64,000 bases of DNA from IMG/VR virus record IMGVR_UViG_3300028833_000006, positions 1 through 64,000 of that record. The stretch is one strand, 5' to 3'. This DNA comes from a virus (Duplodnaviria; Caudoviricetes). Shown in pieces: positions 2,345-59,432 of this stretch (position 1 is the stretch's first letter; each line of letters starts with the position of its first letter). Made by a program: the position numbers and the translations under genes. The notes under the pieces are model-generated. The model was not told the origin of the DNA and did no database searches. It was given only the letters and a program-made list of their open reading frames with translations.

Positions 2345-2482
2345 AATCTTTCCTCCTTATAACTTGTTATGACTTTCAATAGTTTCTATTTGCAATAAAA
2401 AGAGTGATATTCACATACCACTCTTATAATGCCATTATTAATTGAGTAGTTACGTGTTTTGAGTTCTTCAAGTTTTTTATTT

Positions 2483-2511
2483 AGTATATCACAGTACATA
2501 ATGTTTTGCAA
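2483..2511 (-). promoter_or_regulatory. sigmaA-type promoter for ssb-pol
   Basis: TTGCAA-17 nt-TATACT with extended -10 TG. Confidence 0.6.
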
Positions 2512-2519
2512 TAATAAAT

Positions 2520-2745
2520 TTATTCGTTTTTATACAACTTTATCTCCAACCCAAGTGCTTTAACCATCTTCTCAATGTTATCAATTGTCGGATTACTTTC
2601 ACCACTAATTGCACGAGAAACAATAGCCTTATCAACAACAGATTTCCTTTGCCGTTCTTCTGAAATAACGATTACCATTTTTCCAAAAGTACACAGTACC
2701 CGAAAATACATCACCCTCACTATATATGCTAAAACTATTTTTCAT
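2520..2745 (-). pseudogene. Chimeric remnant: 37-aa ORF (2632-2745) overlapping an out-of-frame XRE/Cro HTH C-terminal half
   Basis: The RBS-backed ATG at 2745 stops at 2632; another frame carries VDKAIVSRAISGESNPTIDNIEKMVKALG, typical of XRE helices 3-5 but lacking helices 1-2. Confidence 0.5.
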
Positions 2746-3076
2746 TCTGTTCCCCCAAAATCAATGGGATGTTGGATTTATATTCAACTCTAATATCATT
2801 TTCCATTTTCAACTTAAACATTTGATATAAGGCATTTGATAAACCTTGCACAAAAGTTTCATCCCCTGCCAATTCTGAATATCCTATATTCATCAATATT
2901 CCATGCACTATTTCGTGAAATAATACTGCTTGCTTTAATTCCTTGGGTAAACTCTCTTTCAAAAGTATCTTTGCTTGTGAATAAAGTATCTTACCCTGTG
3001 TTATTCCGTCCAATTCTTCGTCTATTACTGGTACTTCTTCAATAGTATAAGGTATTCCACATATATTTACATTCAT
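2735..3076 (-). CDS. HEXXH zinc-metallopeptidase-like protein (ImmA/IrrE-like)
   Basis: LFHEIVHGIL motif plus downstream E; paralog of 4304-4672. Confidence 0.6.
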   Translation of the reverse strand: MNVNICGIPYTIEEVPVIDEELDGITQGKILYSQAKILLKESLPKELKQAVLFHEIVHGILMNIGYSELAGDETFVQGLSNALYQMFKLKMENDIRVEYKSNIPLILGEQNEK

Positions 3077-3237
3077 ACATTATCCTCACTTTCCTGTGGT
3101 GTATCTTCTTTCCCATAATTACCACATAGATGTGATTTTTCCGTATAAGCATCTGGACAATATACACTAGGATTTCTCTGCCCTATACAATACTCTTCGT
3201 ATGTTTTAGGTGAATATTCACATTCTTTACAACTCAT
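3073..3237 (-). CDS. 54-aa Cys-rich cassette protein
   Basis: Manual: MSCKECEY...PQESEDNV; ATGA coupling at both ends. Confidence 0.6.
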   Translation of the reverse strand: MSCKECEYSPKTYEEYCIGQRNPSVYCPDAYTEKSHLCGNYGKEDTPQESEDNV

Positions 3238-3473
3238 TCCTTATCCTCACTTTCTGCCTTATATGGTGCGTTCCACCAAGATTTTTCTATCGCATAACCA
3301 ACAACTCCGTCCAATGTAAATTCCATAAAATTTGTGGGTGTGTTTTCACTTCTCGTTTTACAAGATGGAAATAATGCCTTAATCACATCACCATTCGTAG
3401 CATTATTTTTCACTCTAATAGTTATTTCATCGTGTCGTCCAAATACAAATAAATCTTTATCGTAATCTAGCAT
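3234..3473 (-). CDS. Hypothetical cassette protein
   Basis: ORF with TNGDVIKALFP and WWNAPYKAESEDKE. Confidence 0.7.
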   Translation of the reverse strand: MLDYDKDLFVFGRHDEITIRVKNNATNGDVIKALFPSCKTRSENTPTNFMEFTLDGVVGYAIEKSWWNAPYKAESEDKE

Positions 3474-3685
3474 TCCTTATCCTCACTTTCCATAATCTCG
3501 TTTAGGTCATACAGACTATTTACTTCAATGGCTAACTGATATTCGTTTTCTGCCATTAGTGCCATTCTTAACCATTTCTCACGCTTTCGGTCTGTCAGAT
3601 AACCCAACACTAACGCTTGATTCCCTTCTTCAAGTACAATGCAAGGTCTTTTCCTGTCGGGAAAATGTCTTATAGCAATTAACAT
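3467..3685 (-). CDS. Hypothetical cassette protein
   Basis: Coupled ORF ending ESEDKEC. Confidence 0.65.
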   Translation of the reverse strand: MLIAIRHFPDRKRPCIVLEEGNQALVLGYLTDRKREKWLRMALMAENEYQLAIEVNSLYDLNEIMESEDKEC

Positions 3686-3870
3686 TCCTGCTCCTTTCTG
3701 TACTTGTCGATAATCTCTAACGCTTTAGCAAGTCCATTAGTGTAATCTCGGAACATATACATTTTTTGTATTTCTGTGTTTATCTCAGCTTTTATCTTGT
3801 CAAGCAATTCATCCCGTTCCTCCAAAGCTTTAAATGCTCTATCTATATCTTTTAATGTTTGGTCAGTCAT
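3679..3870 (-). CDS. Hypothetical cassette protein
   Basis: Coupled helical ORF (ALEIIDKY). Confidence 0.65.
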   Translation of the reverse strand: MTDQTLKDIDRAFKALEERDELLDKIKAEINTEIQKMYMFRDYTNGLAKALEIIDKYRKEQEC

Positions 3871-4163
3871 TCCTTATTCCTCTCCATTTCATACATGGTT
3901 TCTTTAATAGTCTTAAATCCTGCTTTCTCATAAATGTGTATTGCTTTGTCATTATCAGACCGTACCCACAATTTCTTTATTCCATAGGTATCAATCAAAT
4001 CAGATAACACTTGCTGACCATAACCCTTATTCTGATATGGCTCAAATATTACAAATCTTTCAAGCATTTTCTCATTAGGTTCAATCTCTGCTGTACCTAT
4101 AAGCGTTCCGTCTGATAATTTAATATCAATCTCAATGAAGTGCTCTGTTTCTTCAAATATCAT
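3867..4163 (-). CDS. GNAT family acetyltransferase
   Basis: Acetyl-CoA motif YQNKGYG and NDKAIHIYEKAGF. Confidence 0.85.
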   Translation of the reverse strand: MIFEETEHFIEIDIKLSDGTLIGTAEIEPNEKMLERFVIFEPYQNKGYGQQVLSDLIDTYGIKKLWVRSDNDKAIHIYEKAGFKTIKETMYEMERNKE

Positions 4164-4184
4164 TCTTCTACCTCACTCTCTGCC

Positions 4185-4307
4185 TTATCCAATTATGCTT
4201 AATAACTTACTTGTGTTAATAAGCGTAAGTATCTGCACTATAAGACCTATCATTTGTGTTATAACCATGACTATCACACATATATGCGAAATATTTTCTA
4301 ATTTCAT
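4185..4307 (-). CDS. 40-aa hydrophobic peptide
   Basis: Manual ORF coupled by ATGA to the upstream gene; single TM-like stretch. Confidence 0.45.
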   Translation of the reverse strand: MKLENISHICVIVMVITQMIGLIVQILTLINTSKLLSIIG

Positions 4308-4672
4308 ACTTCCTCACTTTCCTGTGGCTCAACCATCTTTGCTCCACAATTTTCGCCTATTTGTTGTAAAACTTTATTTATCTTAGGCAACTGAATTGCA
4401 ATCCAATCAACCAATTCCTCGTTTTCAGCATACTCTGAGTTTCCTCTCAGTCCACTTTCAGCAAAGAATGCGTGTATTATTTCATGTCGCAAAACCCTCT
4501 TTTTAAATTCCTGAAAATTCTCATATGACAGTTCATCTTCTTGTATATCAGCATTTAGTATAATTCTATGGGAATAAATCTCACACAATCCATTACTATT
4601 TTTTAATTTGGGATTCTGTTCTTCAGTTTGTTCTATTATTTCGTACTCTGTTCCTAATATGTTTACTTTCAT
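4304..4672 (-). CDS. HEXXH metallopeptidase-like protein with a captured Zn-ribbon tail
   Basis: VLRHEIIHAFF..EELVDW; ends NCGAKMVEPQESEEV. Confidence 0.65.
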   Translation of the reverse strand: MKVNILGTEYEIIEQTEEQNPKLKNSNGLCEIYSHRIILNADIQEDELSYENFQEFKKRVLRHEIIHAFFAESGLRGNSEYAENEELVDWIAIQLPKINKVLQQIGENCGAKMVEPQESEEV

Positions 4673-5264
4673 TGTTTAATCCTTTCCCACAAGTAGGGCA
4701 AAACTTGAATCGTTCTGTTTGATTCGCCTCATAATGCCAAATATCACTACAATTTGGACATTCCATATACGTTCTTTCTTCAATCCAACGCCCCGTCTTT
4801 GGCTCTTGTTCTGTGCAACTTTCAAATTGCGGTTCTTCTCCGTCAATTAGCGATTTAGAATACCTTAAACCATTTCTAAAGCCGACAAAGTAGTTAGTAT
4901 CTCCGTTACTTGCGTCAATAGCAAAATCAAGAGTATCGACTATCTTTGGCTCTTGCGGAGTGACAGGTGGTAACTGTCTTATATCTGACATTCTTACAGC
5001 ATATACTGTATCTCCGTTTACATCTGTCATTAATTCTTTGCACTCTTCCAAATCTTCACGGCTGATAGCATTACCGCAAGGCTGTTGCTTTTTCCTCAAT
5101 CTTCTCATAATCTCTGCCATAAAAGTTATACTGAATGCAGTCTTACCCTCTATAACTTTTAAACCTACCGATTCAGCACACTCTTTTATGTATAGCATGG
5201 CCTTTTCATTTTCATTAAGTTCATCATTCTGTGTTAGTGTTCCATATATAGTTCTTCTTGTCAT
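4623..5264 (-). CDS. Mosaic protein with C-terminal zinc ribbon
   Basis: Modules separated by QEPK; CPNC..CPTCG. Confidence 0.65.
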   Translation of the reverse strand: MTRRTIYGTLTQNDELNENEKAMLYIKECAESVGLKVIEGKTAFSITFMAEIMRRLRKKQQPCGNAISREDLEECKELMTDVNGDTVYAVRMSDIRQLPPVTPQEPKIVDTLDFAIDASNGDTNYFVGFRNGLRYSKSLIDGEEPQFESCTEQEPKTGRWIEERTYMECPNCSDIWHYEANQTERFKFCPTCGKGLNNESKHIRNRVRNNRTN

Positions 5265-5266
5265 GT

Positions 5267-5773
5267 TTATTCTTCACTTTCATCCTTATTCTTGTATACA
5301 TACTCAGGTTTATCAGGAACCACGTAAGGAAAAGTCACATTTACTCTAGAATCTCTACTCGTATACCACACTTCTCCATCATCAGTAAATACCTTTCCTT
5401 CAACATTGTATGCGATACCATCTTTGTCTTTAAACACGGCAGAATATCTTTTATTTTGTTGAAGACCGTCTCCAATATCATTCCACTCATCATCTTCACC
5501 TGTCAGCGGTGAAATGGGCTTAAACATAGCAAGTCTGTAAAACATGTTCACAACATATGGAGCTGTAAATCCGCTATGACCCTGAGAAGCAAATAACTCA
5601 ATCAAATCCAAGATAGCCTTTGTTGCCCAATCGTTATATGGTTCTCCAGAATCAATCATTCCAATCCTTTTAAGTTCATCTTTTGCATAATCAGTTAAAT
5701 TACTCATCTTTAGCCTCTCTTTCAACTTTTTTAATTTCTCTATATCTTCTTTCGTTTCGTACCTCAATAACAA
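5267..5773 (-). CDS. Conserved-type phage hypothetical protein (start may be 5707)
   Basis: ORF with SQGHSGFTA and PLTGEDDEW; ends DESEE. Confidence 0.7.
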   Translation of the reverse strand: MLLRYETKEDIEKLKKLKERLKMSNLTDYAKDELKRIGMIDSGEPYNDWATKAILDLIELFASQGHSGFTAPYVVNMFYRLAMFKPISPLTGEDDEWNDIGDGLQQNKRYSAVFKDKDGIAYNVEGKVFTDDGEVWYTSRDSRVNVTFPYVVPDKPEYVYKNKDESEE

Positions 5774-5779
5774 GATACT

Positions 5780-6025
5780 TTACCCTTTTATCTTTGCCTT
5801 ATTTCTTAAATATTCCATAGCATCATAATAACCTTTTCTATATGCCTTTTCTAATATAGCGGATTGTGCTGTAGCCGTTAGCCATTTTTCTGTAACATCT
5901 TCGCCATACAATGTATAGTTAATAGCATGAAGGTATGCTGTTGCTATTACCATAGGTGGCATCTTTGATAATTCTTCTATTAACCGTTTGTTTTCATATT
6001 CCTGTATTTGCTTTTCTTTGTTCAT
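5780..6025 (-). CDS. Hypothetical protein
   Basis: Coupled ORF. Confidence 0.6.
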   Translation of the reverse strand: MNKEKQIQEYENKRLIEELSKMPPMVIATAYLHAINYTLYGEDVTEKWLTATAQSAILEKAYRKGYYDAMEYLRNKAKIKG

Positions 6026-6321
6026 TGCTCCTCACTTTCCAGTGTCTTATACAATTTATCAAAATCTTCTTTCCACATTATCTCTGCCATAAGTTCTTGT
6101 TCCCCACACAACATCACTTGCAAAACTACAATCGGTTTGTATTCACTATCACGATAATCCCTCTTTTGTAATCTCGGATTTTTATCAAGAATAGTATCTG
6201 CCATTTGAGATTTCATATGAAATCGCAATATAAAGGAATCCTTGTAATTCTTTACTATTGTTCCACTAACAGCATTTATTTTAACTGTCTGTGGATTCGA
6301 TACATTATAACTATTAAACAT
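6022..6321 (-). CDS. Hypothetical cassette protein
   Basis: ORF ending ESEEQ. Confidence 0.65.
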   Translation of the reverse strand: MFNSYNVSNPQTVKINAVSGTIVKNYKDSFILRFHMKSQMADTILDKNPRLQKRDYRDSEYKPIVVLQVMLCGEQELMAEIMWKEDFDKLYKTLESEEQ

Positions 6322-6323
6322 CC

Positions 6324-6563
6324 CTATTTCTCACTTTCTGCCAAAATATCCTTAATAACATCTAACTTATTTGCATCTGCAAACTTCTTTATAAGCCGTA
6401 ACTCGGAATTAAGTTTATCTGATTTATCTTGCAAAGTGCCTAATCTTGCTATCAGTATATAATGCAAAATATCATATACTTCCGCCACTAAATTATTCTC
6501 TACGGCTAACTTAACTATCTGTTCTTTAGTCATCCTCACTCCATCAAAATTTATATTTGCCAT
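6324..6563 (-). CDS. Hypothetical cassette protein
   Basis: ORF ending AESEK. Confidence 0.65.
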   Translation of the reverse strand: MANINFDGVRMTKEQIVKLAVENNLVAEVYDILHYILIARLGTLQDKSDKLNSELRLIKKFADANKLDVIKDILAESEK

Positions 6564-6905
6564 TTATTCCTCACTCTCTGCCTTATCTGCTTCTATGATT
6601 GTGGGTGTAATAAAATATTCTTGAATATACCTCGAAAGCACCTCTGGGTTATATGTACCAAAGCCTATAATATGTTCTCCATCTTTTTCGTATTTGATTG
6701 AAAAATATGGTTTACCCTTATATTCAGGATATGTACATAAATCAGCAGGTGGATATTCAACCGCTATTCCCTCAAACTTTATTGTATGTCCTTTAGGAAG
6801 TGGTGTGCCAGTTCTTACTATTTCTTTCAGCGAAAGGCTATCAATATAGTCCAAGCGATTATATCTTTCTTCGGGTATCTTAATTACTAATTCTATATCT
6901 GCCAT
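6564..6905 (-). CDS. MADIELVIKIP-family mosaic protein
   Basis: Same N-terminus as 59097-59432; ends TIIEADKAESEE. Confidence 0.7.
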   Translation of the reverse strand: MADIELVIKIPEERYNRLDYIDSLSLKEIVRTGTPLPKGHTIKFEGIAVEYPPADLCTYPEYKGKPYFSIKYEKDGEHIIGFGTYNPEVLSRYIQEYFITPTIIEADKAESEE

Positions 6906-6906
6906 A

Positions 6907-7077
6907 TTATTTCTCACTTTCCTTAATAAATAACCACCTAAAATGCCAAATAAAAATATTTAGTATTAAGGCTATGTTTTTCTCTCTATACATAGGATTA
7001 TCTATGTGTATCTCAATCGTCGGAATAAATGTTATCCATTTACTAAAAGTCTGTAATTGAAAATCGTGTAGTGTCAT
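6907..7077 (-). CDS. 56-aa hydrophobic cassette protein
   Basis: Manual ORF MTLHDFQ...WLFIKESEK with junction motifs on both sides. Confidence 0.6.
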   Translation of the reverse strand: MTLHDFQLQTFSKWITFIPTIEIHIDNPMYREKNIALILNIFIWHFRWLFIKESEK

Positions 7078-7256
7078 GTTTCCTCACTTTCTCCTCTACG
7101 TATAGTCAACCACTGATTAAGGCTTATTCGACATTCAGTACATATATCCCATATCCTTCCATGACTTGAAATACAAAAATTCATATCCTCAATAGTGTCC
7201 GTATACTTTGCAGTTGCCATTTCCTTACCACAAATATCACATACTGTCTTTGTCAT
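7074..7256 (-). CDS. Small zinc-finger protein
   Basis: CDICG...DICTEC; ends GESEET. Confidence 0.7.
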   Translation of the reverse strand: MTKTVCDICGKEMATAKYTDTIEDMNFCISSHGRIWDICTECRISLNQWLTIRRGESEET

Positions 7257-7651
7257 ATTTCCTCACTTTCTGCCTTTAATTCATCACACCATGCTAAAAA
7301 CGCTCTTTTTAACGGATTCAAGTTTCCATCATCTGCCCATCCTGCAAATCCAATAAATCCATCTATATTAAACGAAATAGCTTCTCTTCTTGTGAAATAG
7401 TGCGAGTTGAGATATAGATAACACGTCTTAATTGTTCCGTTCGTATTCTTCGTCATATCAATCTTCTTGCTTAAAGACATTGTATTTACAGATGTTTCGC
7501 CAACCTTGTTTGACTTCTTTAACTCCCTATTAATCATCAATACAAGTGACAGGATATCTCCTTCGGTAATATTGTTATATGTCAAACCGCACTTTTTAAA
7601 GTAATCCCGTGCTTCGTCATTGGTACATACTGGTTCAAAACCTCTTGTCAT
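7253..7651 (-). CDS. Hypothetical cassette protein
   Basis: ORF with REAISFN.DGFIGFAGWAD; ends AESEEI. Confidence 0.7.
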   Translation of the reverse strand: MTRGFEPVCTNDEARDYFKKCGLTYNNITEGDILSLVLMINRELKKSNKVGETSVNTMSLSKKIDMTKNTNGTIKTCYLYLNSHYFTRREAISFNIDGFIGFAGWADDGNLNPLKRAFLAWCDELKAESEEI

Positions 7652-7670
7652 TTCACTCCCTCTCTTCCTG

Positions 7671-8078
7671 TTACTCAATCATCTTTGCACCACAACTTGG
7701 GCAATATATTGAAGTACATGAATGTACTATAAGACACTTTGAACACTTAAAGCCATGCAATCCTTTTATCCAATACCCTGTCTTTGGCTCTTCCTCTAGT
7801 GCCTTGATTGCCATTCTTACTGTTTCTGCCCACTCATAGGATGTGTCAGTATGCCCATCCATTTTACTTTTTAACATATTGATTGCTTCTTGATTAGTCA
7901 TTGTTCTCTCCCTTCCTAAAGTATTCTCCGATAAGCAAACATATAACCCTGTCTTTGGCTCTTGCTTTAGTGCCTTGATTGCCATATTCAAGGCTTCGTA
8001 TTGTTCATCGTCAAAATAATCTAATGACATATCATCTATTCCGTCTTTGATTATTCTACTTGCTTCTTCTCTTGTCAT
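7671..8078 (-). CDS. Tandem-module protein with C-terminal zinc ribbon
   Basis: Two MTxxEA...MAIKAL..EPKTG units, then CSKC..CPSCGAKM. Confidence 0.7.
   Translation of the reverse strand: MTREEASRIIKDGIDDMSLDYFDDEQYEALNMAIKALKQEPKTGLYVCLSENTLGRERTMTNQEAINMLKSKMDGHTDTSYEWAETVRMAIKALEEEPKTGYWIKGLHGFKCSKCLIVHSCTSIYCPSCGAKMIE
7775..7985. repeat. 40-bp direct repeat (7775-7814 and 7946-7985, 38/40 identical)
   Basis: accctgtctttggctctt(c/g)ct(c/t)tagtgccttgattgccat; the core tctttggctctt recurs at about 4796 and 4943. Confidence 0.9.
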
Positions 8079-8314
8079 ACTTCCTCTCCTTCTTGTGGCT
8101 TAACCTCATCCCAACTAATAAAATCTCCGTGAAAGCCTTTTAATTTATCTGTTTCGTTTTCTGAACAGAATATATATTTCACACCCATCTTACTTGTTAA
8201 TGACATAGGTTTTCTACAAACATTAACCCACATATCAGAATAAGCATCTGCAAGTCTATGCCATTCGTAAAACGCATATCTCAATGTCGGGCATAAAACT
8301 ATTTTGGTTTTCAT
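8075..8314 (-). CDS. Hypothetical cassette protein
   Basis: ORF ending PQEGEEV. Confidence 0.6.
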   Translation of the reverse strand: MKTKIVLCPTLRYAFYEWHRLADAYSDMWVNVCRKPMSLTSKMGVKYIFCSENETDKLKGFHGDFISWDEVKPQEGEEV

Positions 8315-8583
8315 ACTCCTTTACCTCTTACAAATTCCTCATTCATTATTCTTGTTATCTCTTTATTCCAATTCACTCGGGCATTCATTTCACTTATACC
8401 TTCAACTCTTTTGCCACACCACATACACTCTAATATGACTATCCTTTTTGACGAAACATATTTATATACTCGCTTCCTTTTGTTACAACCGCAAACACAA
8501 GGTAACAACATTGTCTTTGGTGCTTTCTTGACAAGTCTATACCCCTGTCTATCTGCTTCTTTCATCAATTCTTTTAAGGTCAT
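8311..8583 (-). CDS. Lar-like (restriction alleviation) zinc-ribbon protein
   Basis: LLPCVCG...ECMWCG...NARVNWN pattern resembling the Lar family. Confidence 0.45.
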   Translation of the reverse strand: MTLKELMKEADRQGYRLVKKAPKTMLLPCVCGCNKRKRVYKYVSSKRIVILECMWCGKRVEGISEMNARVNWNKEITRIMNEEFVRGKGV

Positions 8584-8661
8584 TTACACATCTCCTCTAT
8601 TGCTATGAACATAAATACCATTGACACTAATGTCATAATTACAAATCCAACTGTCACCTTA

Positions 8662-9087
8662 TTATTTCTCCTTTCCGTGCCCAATAACATAATCAATCAT
8701 ATCATAGGTCTCGCTTATAAGGTTCTTATAATCAGACTTGGAGTCTACCCTAACCTCTCCAATTCTATACTCGCCAGTGTGCACATATTCACCGTCTATA
8801 GATGTCCTTTCAAAATCGGAGAAATGAAATATCAGTAACTCCTCGCCCCTATTCGTTTTTCTCCTAACACATATCTCTGGTGATGACCAAAAAGGTCTCA
8901 TGCCAATTTTATAAGTTCCGTCTGCATTTACTGCGTCTATAGTCGGTATTTCACTTGTATCCTTAAAATCCCAAAAAGAATTATCAAACCCATGACCAAC
9001 ACCCTTATTATCAATGGTCAGATTTTCTCTCTTTGCAACCATATCAATCAATGCTACCATTCCCTTGATTACTTCGCTTTTTGTCAT
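8662..9087 (-). CDS. Hypothetical protein
   Basis: ORF with GAGGAGA RBS. Confidence 0.65.
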   Translation of the reverse strand: MTKSEVIKGMVALIDMVAKRENLTIDNKGVGHGFDNSFWDFKDTSEIPTIDAVNADGTYKIGMRPFWSSPEICVRRKTNRGEELLIFHFSDFERTSIDGEYVHTGEYRIGEVRVDSKSDYKNLISETYDMIDYVIGHGKEK

Positions 9088-9146
9088 ATGCTTTCTCCTC
9101 TCTTACTTACCATAACATAGTATATAATGTTTTGTCAACAAAAAAT

Positions 9147-9470
9147 TTACTTAAAGCCAATCTCTTCAAGTGCCCTATCAAAATCAGCACCGTCAAGCAT
9201 TTTCTGCTTAAAATCATCTAACTGATTTGGTGTGACACCCACATCCAATATCTGCTCAACTAAGTCATTCATTAAATTCGGATTGTCATATACTACTCTC
9301 CTCTTGCCGTATTCATTTGTCCTATAAATTGGACAGTATGCTATATACTTGAATGATTTTCTATTCAACAGATTGTTGATATTCTCGTCTCTGTACTTTG
9401 CTGTATCAACATTAAAACTATCCTCTGTTCCGTCAAGCCAAGTAAAGTAAATTGCGTATTTCATAAACAA
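9147..9470 (-). CDS. Hypothetical protein
   Basis: ORF with AAGGAGA RBS. Confidence 0.65.
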   Translation of the reverse strand: MFMKYAIYFTWLDGTEDSFNVDTAKYRDENINNLLNRKSFKYIAYCPIYRTNEYGKRRVVYDNPNLMNDLVEQILDVGVTPNQLDDFKQKMLDGADFDRALEEIGFK

Positions 9471-10141: not shown

Positions 10142-10207
10142 CCTTACAATGCCATTATAAGCCTATACTTATATATTGTCAAGTGTTTTTGAAATATTTT
10201 TCAAAAA
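10142..10207 (-). promoter_or_regulatory. Operator-bearing sigmaA promoter, copy A
   Basis: TTGACA(10177-82)-17-TATAAT(10154-59); TATAAG-N6-CTTATA; upstream TTGAAAAATATTTCAA; downstream TGTAAGG. Confidence 0.9.
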
Positions 10208-26579: not shown

Positions 26580-26648
26580 GTGCGCTCCAATCTCGCTCCA
26601 TCTCCCCAATATCATTATAATATTAAAATGACACTTATGTCAACTTAT

Positions 26649-58933: not shown

Positions 58934-59119
58934 CTACTCCTCACCACAGTCCTTCATTCGCCTCTTATAATCCGTATCCATTAAAATTGTGTCATTATCG
59001 TATTCCTCAATATTTGTAACATAATACATACCATCTTCAAACATTTCATCATTTGGAATCAAGATTTTTGCATTTTCTGGATATTTTGATAGTTTCTTAA
59101 TTAACTGTTTTACCGTCAT
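58934..59119 (-). CDS. Hypothetical protein (MTVKQLI..L..YP family)
   Basis: Common phage small-ORF N-terminus. Confidence 0.6.
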   Translation of the reverse strand: MTVKQLIKKLSKYPENAKILIPNDEMFEDGMYYVTNIEEYDNDTILMDTDYKRRMKDCGEE

Positions 59120-59432
59120 TCTTATCCTCGCTTTCTCTCCACACTTCCCTTAATTCAGCACCACAATAACAAGGTCTATGGTCTATAATACTCACAGTTA
59201 ATCTGCATTTCACATCACGAATAACATCTTTTTCAAAGGTTGTATCGGAATCCAGTTTTCCTCTTATCCTTTCTTCCATTAACAAATCTGCTAATATATC
59301 TGGTGTAAGTGGTATGCCGTTTATAACTGCATCTTTAATGTCTAATACATCACTATTCGCAATATGTTCATATTTACGAATATAATTATAAACTCGCTTA
59401 GGTATCTTAACTACTAACTCTATATCAGCCAT
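59097..59432 (-). CDS. MADIELVVKIP-family mosaic protein
   Basis: N-terminal paralog of 6564-6905; carries an ESEDK junction. Confidence 0.65.
   Translation of the reverse strand: MADIELVVKIPKRVYNYIRKYEHIANSDVLDIKDAVINGIPLTPDILADLLMEERIRGKLDSDTTFEKDVIRDVKCRLTVSIIDHRPCYCGAELREVWRESEDKNDGKTVN

Follow-up and report, generated by a model that had tools for sequence, protein, structure and literature searches.

A short putative translational-coupling sequence between the small genes of rumen phage arrays as a probable recombination linker

Introduction

The first 64,000 nucleotides of the virus record IMGVR_UViG_3300028833_000006 (IMG/VR; Caudoviricetes), hereafter the window, carry on their minus strand an array of 22 small accessory open reading frames (ORFs; 2735-8583, 40-213 residues), at 12 of whose junctions one short sequence recurs. 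This sequence, here called the connector, is purine-rich, 25-30 nt long, built around a 10-nt core and without an inverted repeat. We consider it probable, at roughly 0.6, that the connector couples the translation of one small gene to that of the next and also serves as a recombination linker. An initial annotation of the window had proposed an array of micro-gene cassettes shuffled by short-homology recombination, with a motif peculiar to this phage. We find instead that many rumen phages and prophages have the motif in common as a standard, and that homology between phages ends preferentially where it stands.

How phage mosaics arise has been debated for decades, with homologous exchange at boundary sequences on one side and illegitimate recombination followed by selection on the other. 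The chief objection to the boundary-sequence view is that such sequences are missing at most joints (PMC3029335). The connector is a single boundary sequence found at hundreds of single-gene joints in many phages, has a plausible role in its own right and joins genes that include counter-defence cargo (Tad3).

Results

The motif GA(A/G)AGTGA(G/A)(G/A) stands 4-7 nt ahead of the next ATG at each of the 12 junctions. The roughly 20 tiny coupled ORFs and 12 shared junctions first reported hold up on recounting. Its core GAAAGTGAGG occurs seven times in the window, each time on the minus (sense) strand and within 3084-7270, against a shuffle expectation of 0.16 copies, and 0 of 100 shuffles reached seven. 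With one-base variants included there are 12 junction copies in 2735-8583, one copy at 59126-59135 and about 19 in the whole record. The strand bias is complete, with 19 sense and 0 antisense copies in the 111-kb record and 27 and 0, respectively, in 948 kb of relatives anchored on the single-stranded DNA-binding protein (SSB) gene. Across loci the distance to the start codon is nearly always 2-9 nt, and ATGA stop/start overlaps are found at no fewer than nine junctions of the array.

At 11 of the 12 junctions the motif is translated as part of the upstream gene, giving its protein a C-terminal ESE(D/E/K). Going up the coordinates, the core GAAAGTGAGG at 3084-3093 follows the tail TPQESEDNV, with the next ATG at 3076; the copies at 3245-3254 (tail YKAESEDKE) and 3481-3490 (tail MESEDKEC) have the exact 20-mer flavour, which reads GAAAGTGAGGATAAGGAATG(A) at the former. 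At 4312-4321 the tail is CGAKMVEPQESEEV, borrowed from an interrupted Zn-ribbon gene described below, while the degenerate core GAAAGTGAAG at 5272-5281 lies behind the Tad3 gene (tail KDESEE). Further copies follow at 6030-6039 (LESEEQ), 6329-6338 (variant GAAAGTGAGA, AESEK), 6569-6578 (core GAGAGTGAGG, ADKAESEE), 6912-6921 (again GAAAGTGAGA, KESEK), 7082-7091 (GESEET) and 7261-7270 (KAESEEI). The remaining junction copy, core GAGAGTGAGG at 4171-4180, comes after the TAA of a 40-residue ORF and in another frame; it is not read as ESE, as the initial annotation had observed, and is followed by the ATG of a GNAT gene at 4163. The identities between junctions noted there are exact as well, over 17 nt (3083-3099 = 4311-4327, CCACAGGAAAGTGAGGA) and 19 nt (4171-4189 = 6569-6587, GATAAGGCAGAGAGTGAGG). 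The isolated minus-strand connector GAAAGCGAGG, previously placed near 59120 beside a paralog, is located at 59126-59135 behind the gene 59097-59432, an N-terminal paralog of 6564-6917.

The connector is conserved as nucleotides and not as a peptide. About 445 distinct copies were sorted, over all loci, by how the upstream gene reads them: as ESE in 76%, with a stop at the TGA within the motif in 7% and in the third frame in 3%; the other 14% have no long ORF in front of them. The ESE bias can be attributed to the ATGA overlap, which at a fixed distance yields such a bias. The serine of 201 tails is encoded by AGT in 169 cases, AGC in 27 and TCN in 5 (AGY in 196 of 201), where TCN accounts for 65% of all serine codons and for 42% of those within internal ES(E/D) motifs. 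The glutamate codons are similarly near-fixed, Glu-1 as GAA and Glu-3 as GAG in 192 of 201 tails each. One protein family ending in IIDKY carries the tail RKEQEC, KTESEG or KAESEDKE depending on the phage. The ESEE tail of the Tad3 protein lies outside its domain, and the tails lie outside the GNAT domain as well.

As an RNA, the connector looks like a ribosome-binding site (RBS) of unusual form. GAAAG-U-GAGG is the perfect complement of the textbook Bacillota 16S rRNA tail CCUCCUUUC plus one extra base. The predicted duplex with GAUCACCUCCUUUCU has a single bulge and -11.2 kcal/mol, compared with -10.1 for AAGGAGG and -5.0 for GAGG alone, all calculated with a textbook Bacillota tail that may not be that of the hosts. 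A canonical anti-Shine-Dalgarno (anti-SD) sequence is implied, since the other genes of the phage use AGGAGG or AAGGAG. Together with the placement on the sense strand only and 4-7 nt before the ATG, this predicted pairing agrees with the earlier proposal of a connector made of RBS and stop/start. In loci not selected by the motif the bulged base is T in 22 cases, A in 7, C in 4 and G in none. A search of Rfam with the connector gave no match, and no relevant publication on the motif string or on RBS-based mosaic joints turned up in a literature search.

The motif is neither the ordinary RBS of this phage nor that of its host. It precedes 15 of 33 array genes and 2 of 170 genes elsewhere in the record (odds ratio (OR) 70, p 6e-12), which speaks against the objection, raised in the initial annotation itself, that it might be just the ordinary RBS of this phage; canonical SD junctions occur within the same arrays. 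The genome of Eubacterium ruminantium ATCC 17233 gives the same picture, as 13 of its 17 motif copies fall in two small contigs, likely prophage, whose small genes are laid out in the same kind of array, and the remainder of the genome has the motif near the control count. These contigs, NZ_FUXA01000030.1 (L195) and C7, hold one small-gene array each with 6-7 connector copies per 2-3 kb.

Beyond this phage, the exact 20-mer GAAAGTGAGGATAAGGAATG is present in more than 116 IMG/VR contigs of 5-145 kb among the matches listed, and in 25 genome contigs, mostly from rumen Lachnospiraceae, including E. ruminantium ATCC 17233 and Butyrivibrio sp. INlla21. In its 147 distinct contexts the genes that follow it belong to at least 123 families and those ahead of it to at least 93, and 3,791 pairs of 820-nt segments around it have only about 25-30 nt in common. 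Because canonical SD junctions work in the same arrays, the sequences point to common descent of the identical connector between unrelated genes and not to convergence; with unrelated flanks, this means recombination to either side of the connector. Hardly any array protein has a homolog in 68 SSB-anchored relative loci, which are too distant for a test of synteny. A search for a co-occurring protein family as a candidate regulator or recombinase gave none that was coherent, the most widespread neighbouring "family" being a heterogeneous collection of modular small proteins with a Zn ribbon or a WMPLPEPY tail.

Homology between relatives ends at the connector more often than at other gene boundaries. 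Flank homology of at least 100 nt was found for 27 segment pairs, 21 of them one-sided with the match ending flush at the connector. Over all loci, homology ends at 78-88% of motif boundaries versus 41-54% of other tight boundaries; when the count is limited to small genes no more than 3 kb from another connector, it ends at 81-93% of motif and 61-74% of non-motif boundaries (OR 2.7-5, p 0.01-0.04). The breakpoints are thus non-random with respect to the motif, as the initial annotation had anticipated. Among close homologs, the 9 nt before the core track the upstream gene (0.30 shared, baseline 0.02) and the spacer weakly tracks the downstream gene (0.33, baseline 0.15). As neither linkage crosses over to the other side, the switch from upstream to downstream lies in the 10-nt core.

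Single cassettes of the window can be followed into other contigs. Three adjacent ones match three different contigs, 6919-7091 in L138 (89% identity), 7081-7267 in L176 (81%) and 7259-7662 in L157 (77%), and the matches of L138 and L176 overlap exactly on the core 7082-7091, those of L176 and L157 on the core 7261-7270. The matches of L078 and L164 end at 6025 and 6040, by the core 6030-6039. Goat-gut contigs carry single window cassettes (7260-7653, 6326-6564 and 6913-7082) at 88-99% identity with unlike DNA on both sides, and many goat and sheep contigs lose their likeness at 3234 and at 3259-3267, around the core 3245-3254. Within the record, the core 6912-6921, together with the 36 nt that open the next gene, matches 103845-103898 at 96% identity, with homology to this paralogous locus beginning exactly at the core position 6921; the locus belongs to the region of a second array with the same motif at 101.8-106.3 kb. 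Among contig joints between motif copies no circle was seen and one deletion is reliable, in a goat-gut contig where 4165 is followed directly by 4300, so that the 134 nt separating two connector copies are missing. Other such joints (3253 to 6581, 3260 to 6037, 4321 to 6569 and others) have a short side of 20-28 nt and were treated as repeat cross-matches, not as deletions. Comparison of junction with flank conservation in orthologous pass-through pairs covered about ten boundaries, mostly of one ortholog group picked by the 20-mer, and an orthologous junction can switch to canonical GAGGAGG (L068 versus L075).

The record is complete (111,212 bp with a 127-bp terminal repeat, about 35% G+C), comes from a sheep-gut metagenome and has nearly all its genes on the minus strand. 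A RecA/UvsX-like recombinase is encoded at record position 94108-95130 (PF00154, E 4e-35) and an SSB is also present, while the complete record gave no match to a tyrosine integrase (PF00589), RecT or Erf. Because of this combination the phage looks virulent and recombination-proficient. The array genes are co-directional and packed stop to start or overlapping. A perfect sigma-70-type promoter TTGACA-17-TATAAT (10154-10182) and a second one matching at 10 of 12 positions with a TG (9109-9138) lie upstream of the array on the minus strand, and a hairpin with a T run resembling an intrinsic terminator (2400-2425, minus strand) lies downstream. A scan of the interior (2735-8583) found no promoter or terminator, and the junctions have no promoter-like or terminator-like sites; with promoters upstream, a terminator downstream and none within, the array looks like one long operon. 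Its neighbours are replication genes, namely SSB, clamp, polymerase pieces, primase and two methyltransferases. A megablast search of 2500-9000 against INPHARED phages gave no match. Two further repeats were seen near gene starts: a 35-47-nt promoter-like repeat containing TTGACA-18-TATGGT at several operon starts (9103-9149 and 2477-2522 in the window, 90823-90866 and 94022-94056 in the record), and palindromes of the type TGACA-N4-TGTCA just 5' of several RBSs outside the arrays (about 26616-26640 in the window, and in the record upstream of 81674, 83002 and 85265).

The cargo suggested earlier is confirmed in part. Encoded on the minus strand are a Tad3 homolog (5267-5773; PF25185, E 4.9e-40, domain at residues 24-140 of 168), that is an inhibitor of type I Thoeris, which had not been recognized before, and a small GNAT acetyltransferase (3867-4163; PF00583, E 1.4e-10). 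Zn ribbons are present, and two HEXXH proteins are SprT-like by a weak match; the proposed Lar-like protein found no match among the array proteins at E<0.01. This strong Tad3 homolog sits in a phage of a rumen Bacillota-type host.

One of the HEXXH genes came with a reconstructable insertion. A minus-strand cassette of 343 nt (4344-4692), which contains its own RBS GGAAAGGA and the ORF, sits within the last CxxC of the Zn-ribbon gene 4623-5264 and is bounded by TTGTGG direct repeats at 4344-4349 and 4687-4692. Reading the Zn-ribbon gene across the cassette restores the ending FCPTCGAKMVEPQESEEV before the stop, and the HEXXH protein now ends in the orphaned tail CGAKMVEPQESEEV of the Zn ribbon. 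As reconstructed, this insertion shows how an unrelated protein inherits the connector tail. Cassettes therefore enter by other microhomology too.

A second repeated segment of 30-45 nt, 90-95% identical between copies, encodes the intragenic linker AIKALEQEPKTG; its copies lie at 7775-7814, 7946-7985 and 4779-4812 of the window and at 104563-104605, 105379-105410 and 105868-105912 of the record. The array proteins are also modular across phages, with N-termini of the type MTREEAI or MSDLISRQAAI and C-termini formed by a CPNCGAKM Zn ribbon or IAWMPLPEPYK. Judged from these sequences, the modularity and the linker repeat suggest that shuffling takes place below the level of the gene as well.

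Discussion

In the mechanism that we favor, GAAAG.U.GAGG would form a nine-pair SD with one bulged base on the 16S rRNA 3' tail (3'-CUUUC-CUCC-5'), 4-7 nt ahead of an ATG that usually overlaps the upstream stop as ATGA. Ribosomes ending one small gene would thus restart on the next, along a long operon of promoterless cassettes. The ESE(D/E) tail would mainly be a by-product, a hydrophilic appendix holding the RBS of the next gene outside the folded domain. The connector DNA would be a shared standard of accessory and anti-defence arrays in phages and prophages of rumen Lachnospiraceae-type hosts. It must have been spread by recombination, since hundreds of unrelated gene pairs are separated by the same 20-30 nt, and would now provide a homology patch for the gain, loss and swap of single-gene cassettes, so that it may raise the recombination rate rather than mark the recombinants that survived. 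The likely enzymes are general or phage recombination proteins, such as the RecA/UvsX-like protein and SSB of this phage.

Several points weigh against an active part of the connector in recombination, and some against the pairing model. In the same arrays, 61-74% of the tight boundaries without the motif are breakpoints too; selection at gene boundaries alone explains much of the pattern, and the motif adds a modest effect to it. The boundary counts lack phylogenetic independence, the motif-anchored loci were chosen by the 20-mer, and the motif-unselected set, when scored for homology passing through or ending, offers three motif boundaries with any homolog. The spacer is common to only 33% of close pairs with the same downstream gene, so that junctions drift or break elsewhere too, and most contig joints between motif copies, with less than 30 nt on one side, are probably repeat artefacts. 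The sole insertion that can be reconstructed in the region used the 6-nt microhomology TTGTGG and not the connector. The duplex energies assume a textbook tail, and the pairing model leaves the strong preference for T at the bulge unexplained. The shuffling proposed in the initial annotation therefore stands as far as the breakpoints at the connector go; its further step, the connector as their cause, is where the breaking of non-motif boundaries and the TTGTGG insertion tell against it.

These same two observations favor an explanation in which the connector is an RBS only. It would be a favored coupling sequence that hitch-hikes on cassette ends, the breakpoints being made by illegitimate or microhomology recombination and by selection at gene boundaries, in line with the published view that illegitimate recombination prevails and boundary sequences are lacking at most phage mosaic joints (PMC3029335). 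We regard this as rather unlikely. An identical 20-mer before at least 123 and behind at least 93 unrelated families cannot be convergence when canonical SDs work in the same arrays, one-sided hitch-hiking would tie the connector flavour to the gene family whereas the linkage switches within the core, and breaks are more frequent at motif boundaries than at matched boundaries without the motif (OR 2.7-5). That conservation exceeds what SD pairing needs, in the T at the bulge and the recurrent spacer ATAAGGA, could also be explained by a post-transcriptional regulon, in which the connector is the RNA site of a RegA-like repressor or of a RegB-like SD-specific endoribonuclease and the whole array is switched together. 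The restriction of the motif to one gene class and a core without GGAG would suit such an operator. The spacers, however, vary freely in this phage, an orthologous junction switches to canonical GAGGAGG (L068 versus L075), no candidate factor co-occurs with the arrays and Rfam has no match, which together make a regulon operator improbable.

Two further explanations were rejected. Selection of the acidic (K/P)(A/Q)ESE(D/E) tail itself as a C-terminal peptide tag, for example for stability, sorting or partner binding, would agree with the ESE reading of 76% of the copies and with the variation in this phage, which falls mostly at third codon positions. The sequence is nevertheless kept in the 24% of copies that are untranslated or out of the ESE frame, its codons are almost fixed where it is translated, the IIDKY family has different tails in different phages, and the tails lie beyond the Tad3 and GNAT domain limits, so that we consider a tag very improbable. 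Still less credible is an assembly artefact, in which short repeats lead metagenome assemblers to fuse unrelated phages into false mosaics. The data are indeed mostly short-read metagenome assemblies, and in the source sample the Logan unitigs are interrupted at connector copies or close to them. Against this, the connector is shorter than the final k-mers of the usual assemblers, the same arrays occur in the isolate genomes of E. ruminantium ATCC 17233 and Butyrivibrio sp. INlla21, the record closes with its 127-bp terminal repeat, and the motif is real irrespective of the joins.

Returning to the connector as both coupling sequence and linker, a broader generalization is fairly plausible, though less likely than not, namely a habitat-wide "plug standard". 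One 25-30-nt connector would be kept alike by constant exchange, and by means of it unrelated phages and prophages of rumen Lachnospiraceae would trade single anti-defence or accessory genes in frame and ready for expression. Should this hold, a recombinase-independent cassette system would exist in nature, and the boundary-sequence model of mosaicism would gain direct evidence; the bulged-U form might furthermore be read by a dedicated factor. The question can be addressed experimentally, because the connector is present in the cultured hosts E. ruminantium ATCC 17233 and Butyrivibrio sp. INlla21; the former, a cultured strain with two arrays, is hence usable as an experimental system. The connector moreover flags accessory and anti-defence arrays in rumen viromes and offers a natural design for stacking small genes in Bacillota operons.

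Comparison with known systems

Translational coupling through an ATGA overlap with an SD inside the upstream gene is a textbook operon feature. The connector shares with it the ATGA overlap, an SD 4-7 nt upstream and C-terminal residues that are set by the SD. Unlike in textbook coupling, the SD of the connector is bulged and long (GAAAG-U-GAGG), near-identical over unrelated genes and phages, and confined to accessory arrays.

T4-type phages carry mobile regulatory cassettes known as promoter-early stem-loop (PeSL) elements (Arbiol et al. 2010, PMC2839356; Comeau et al. 2014, PMC4122927), each consisting of a sigma-70 promoter and a terminator hairpin in intergenic DNA that make one transcription unit per ORF (PMC2839356, PMC4122927). 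PeSLs and connector are alike in being short conserved expression signals repeated between small non-essential ORFs of hyperplastic regions, here with 12 motif copies among the 22 ORFs of a hypervariable region, and in bounding the insertions, deletions and replacements between relatives. PeSLs are proposed to act through the phage's own homologous recombination, and the connector phage likewise has a RecA/UvsX-like gene and SSB. No mini-circle was seen for the connector in the assembled contigs, where joints with short sides are unreliable. The connector, which has neither promoter nor hairpin, differs in being translational (SD plus stop/start overlap), in its length of 25-30 nt and in lying within the coding end of the upstream gene, and it is common to many unrelated phage lineages of one habitat, whereas PeSLs belong to one phage genus.

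Short conserved boundary or "linker" sequences were part of the modular theory of lambdoid phages, as PMC3029335 summarizes it (Susskind & Botstein 1978; Clark et al. 2001, as cited there). The connector resembles them as a short conserved sequence between unrelated flanks and a proposed site of homologous exchange, the same short sequence being found across phages with non-homologous DNA on both sides. Most joints of lambdoid phages and mycobacteriophages have no such sequence (PMC3029335). Unlike lambdoid linkers, the connector appears at hundreds of joints, on the scale of single genes rather than modules, and with what appears to be an evident RBS function of its own.

The comparison with an integron lacking its integrase, drawn in the initial annotation, fits loosely. 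Promoterless single-gene cassettes stand in one orientation behind a promoter in both, and the cargo is highly variable and includes defence and counter-defence genes. Unlike integrons, however, the connector arrays have no tyrosine integrase (IntI) and no attC-type imperfect inverted repeats or hairpins, the connector being unstructured, and they imply no site-specific chemistry. On these comparisons, the best reading is that the connector acts not as part of an integron but as a coding-embedded analogue of the PeSLs of T4-type phages and of the lambdoid boundary sequences.

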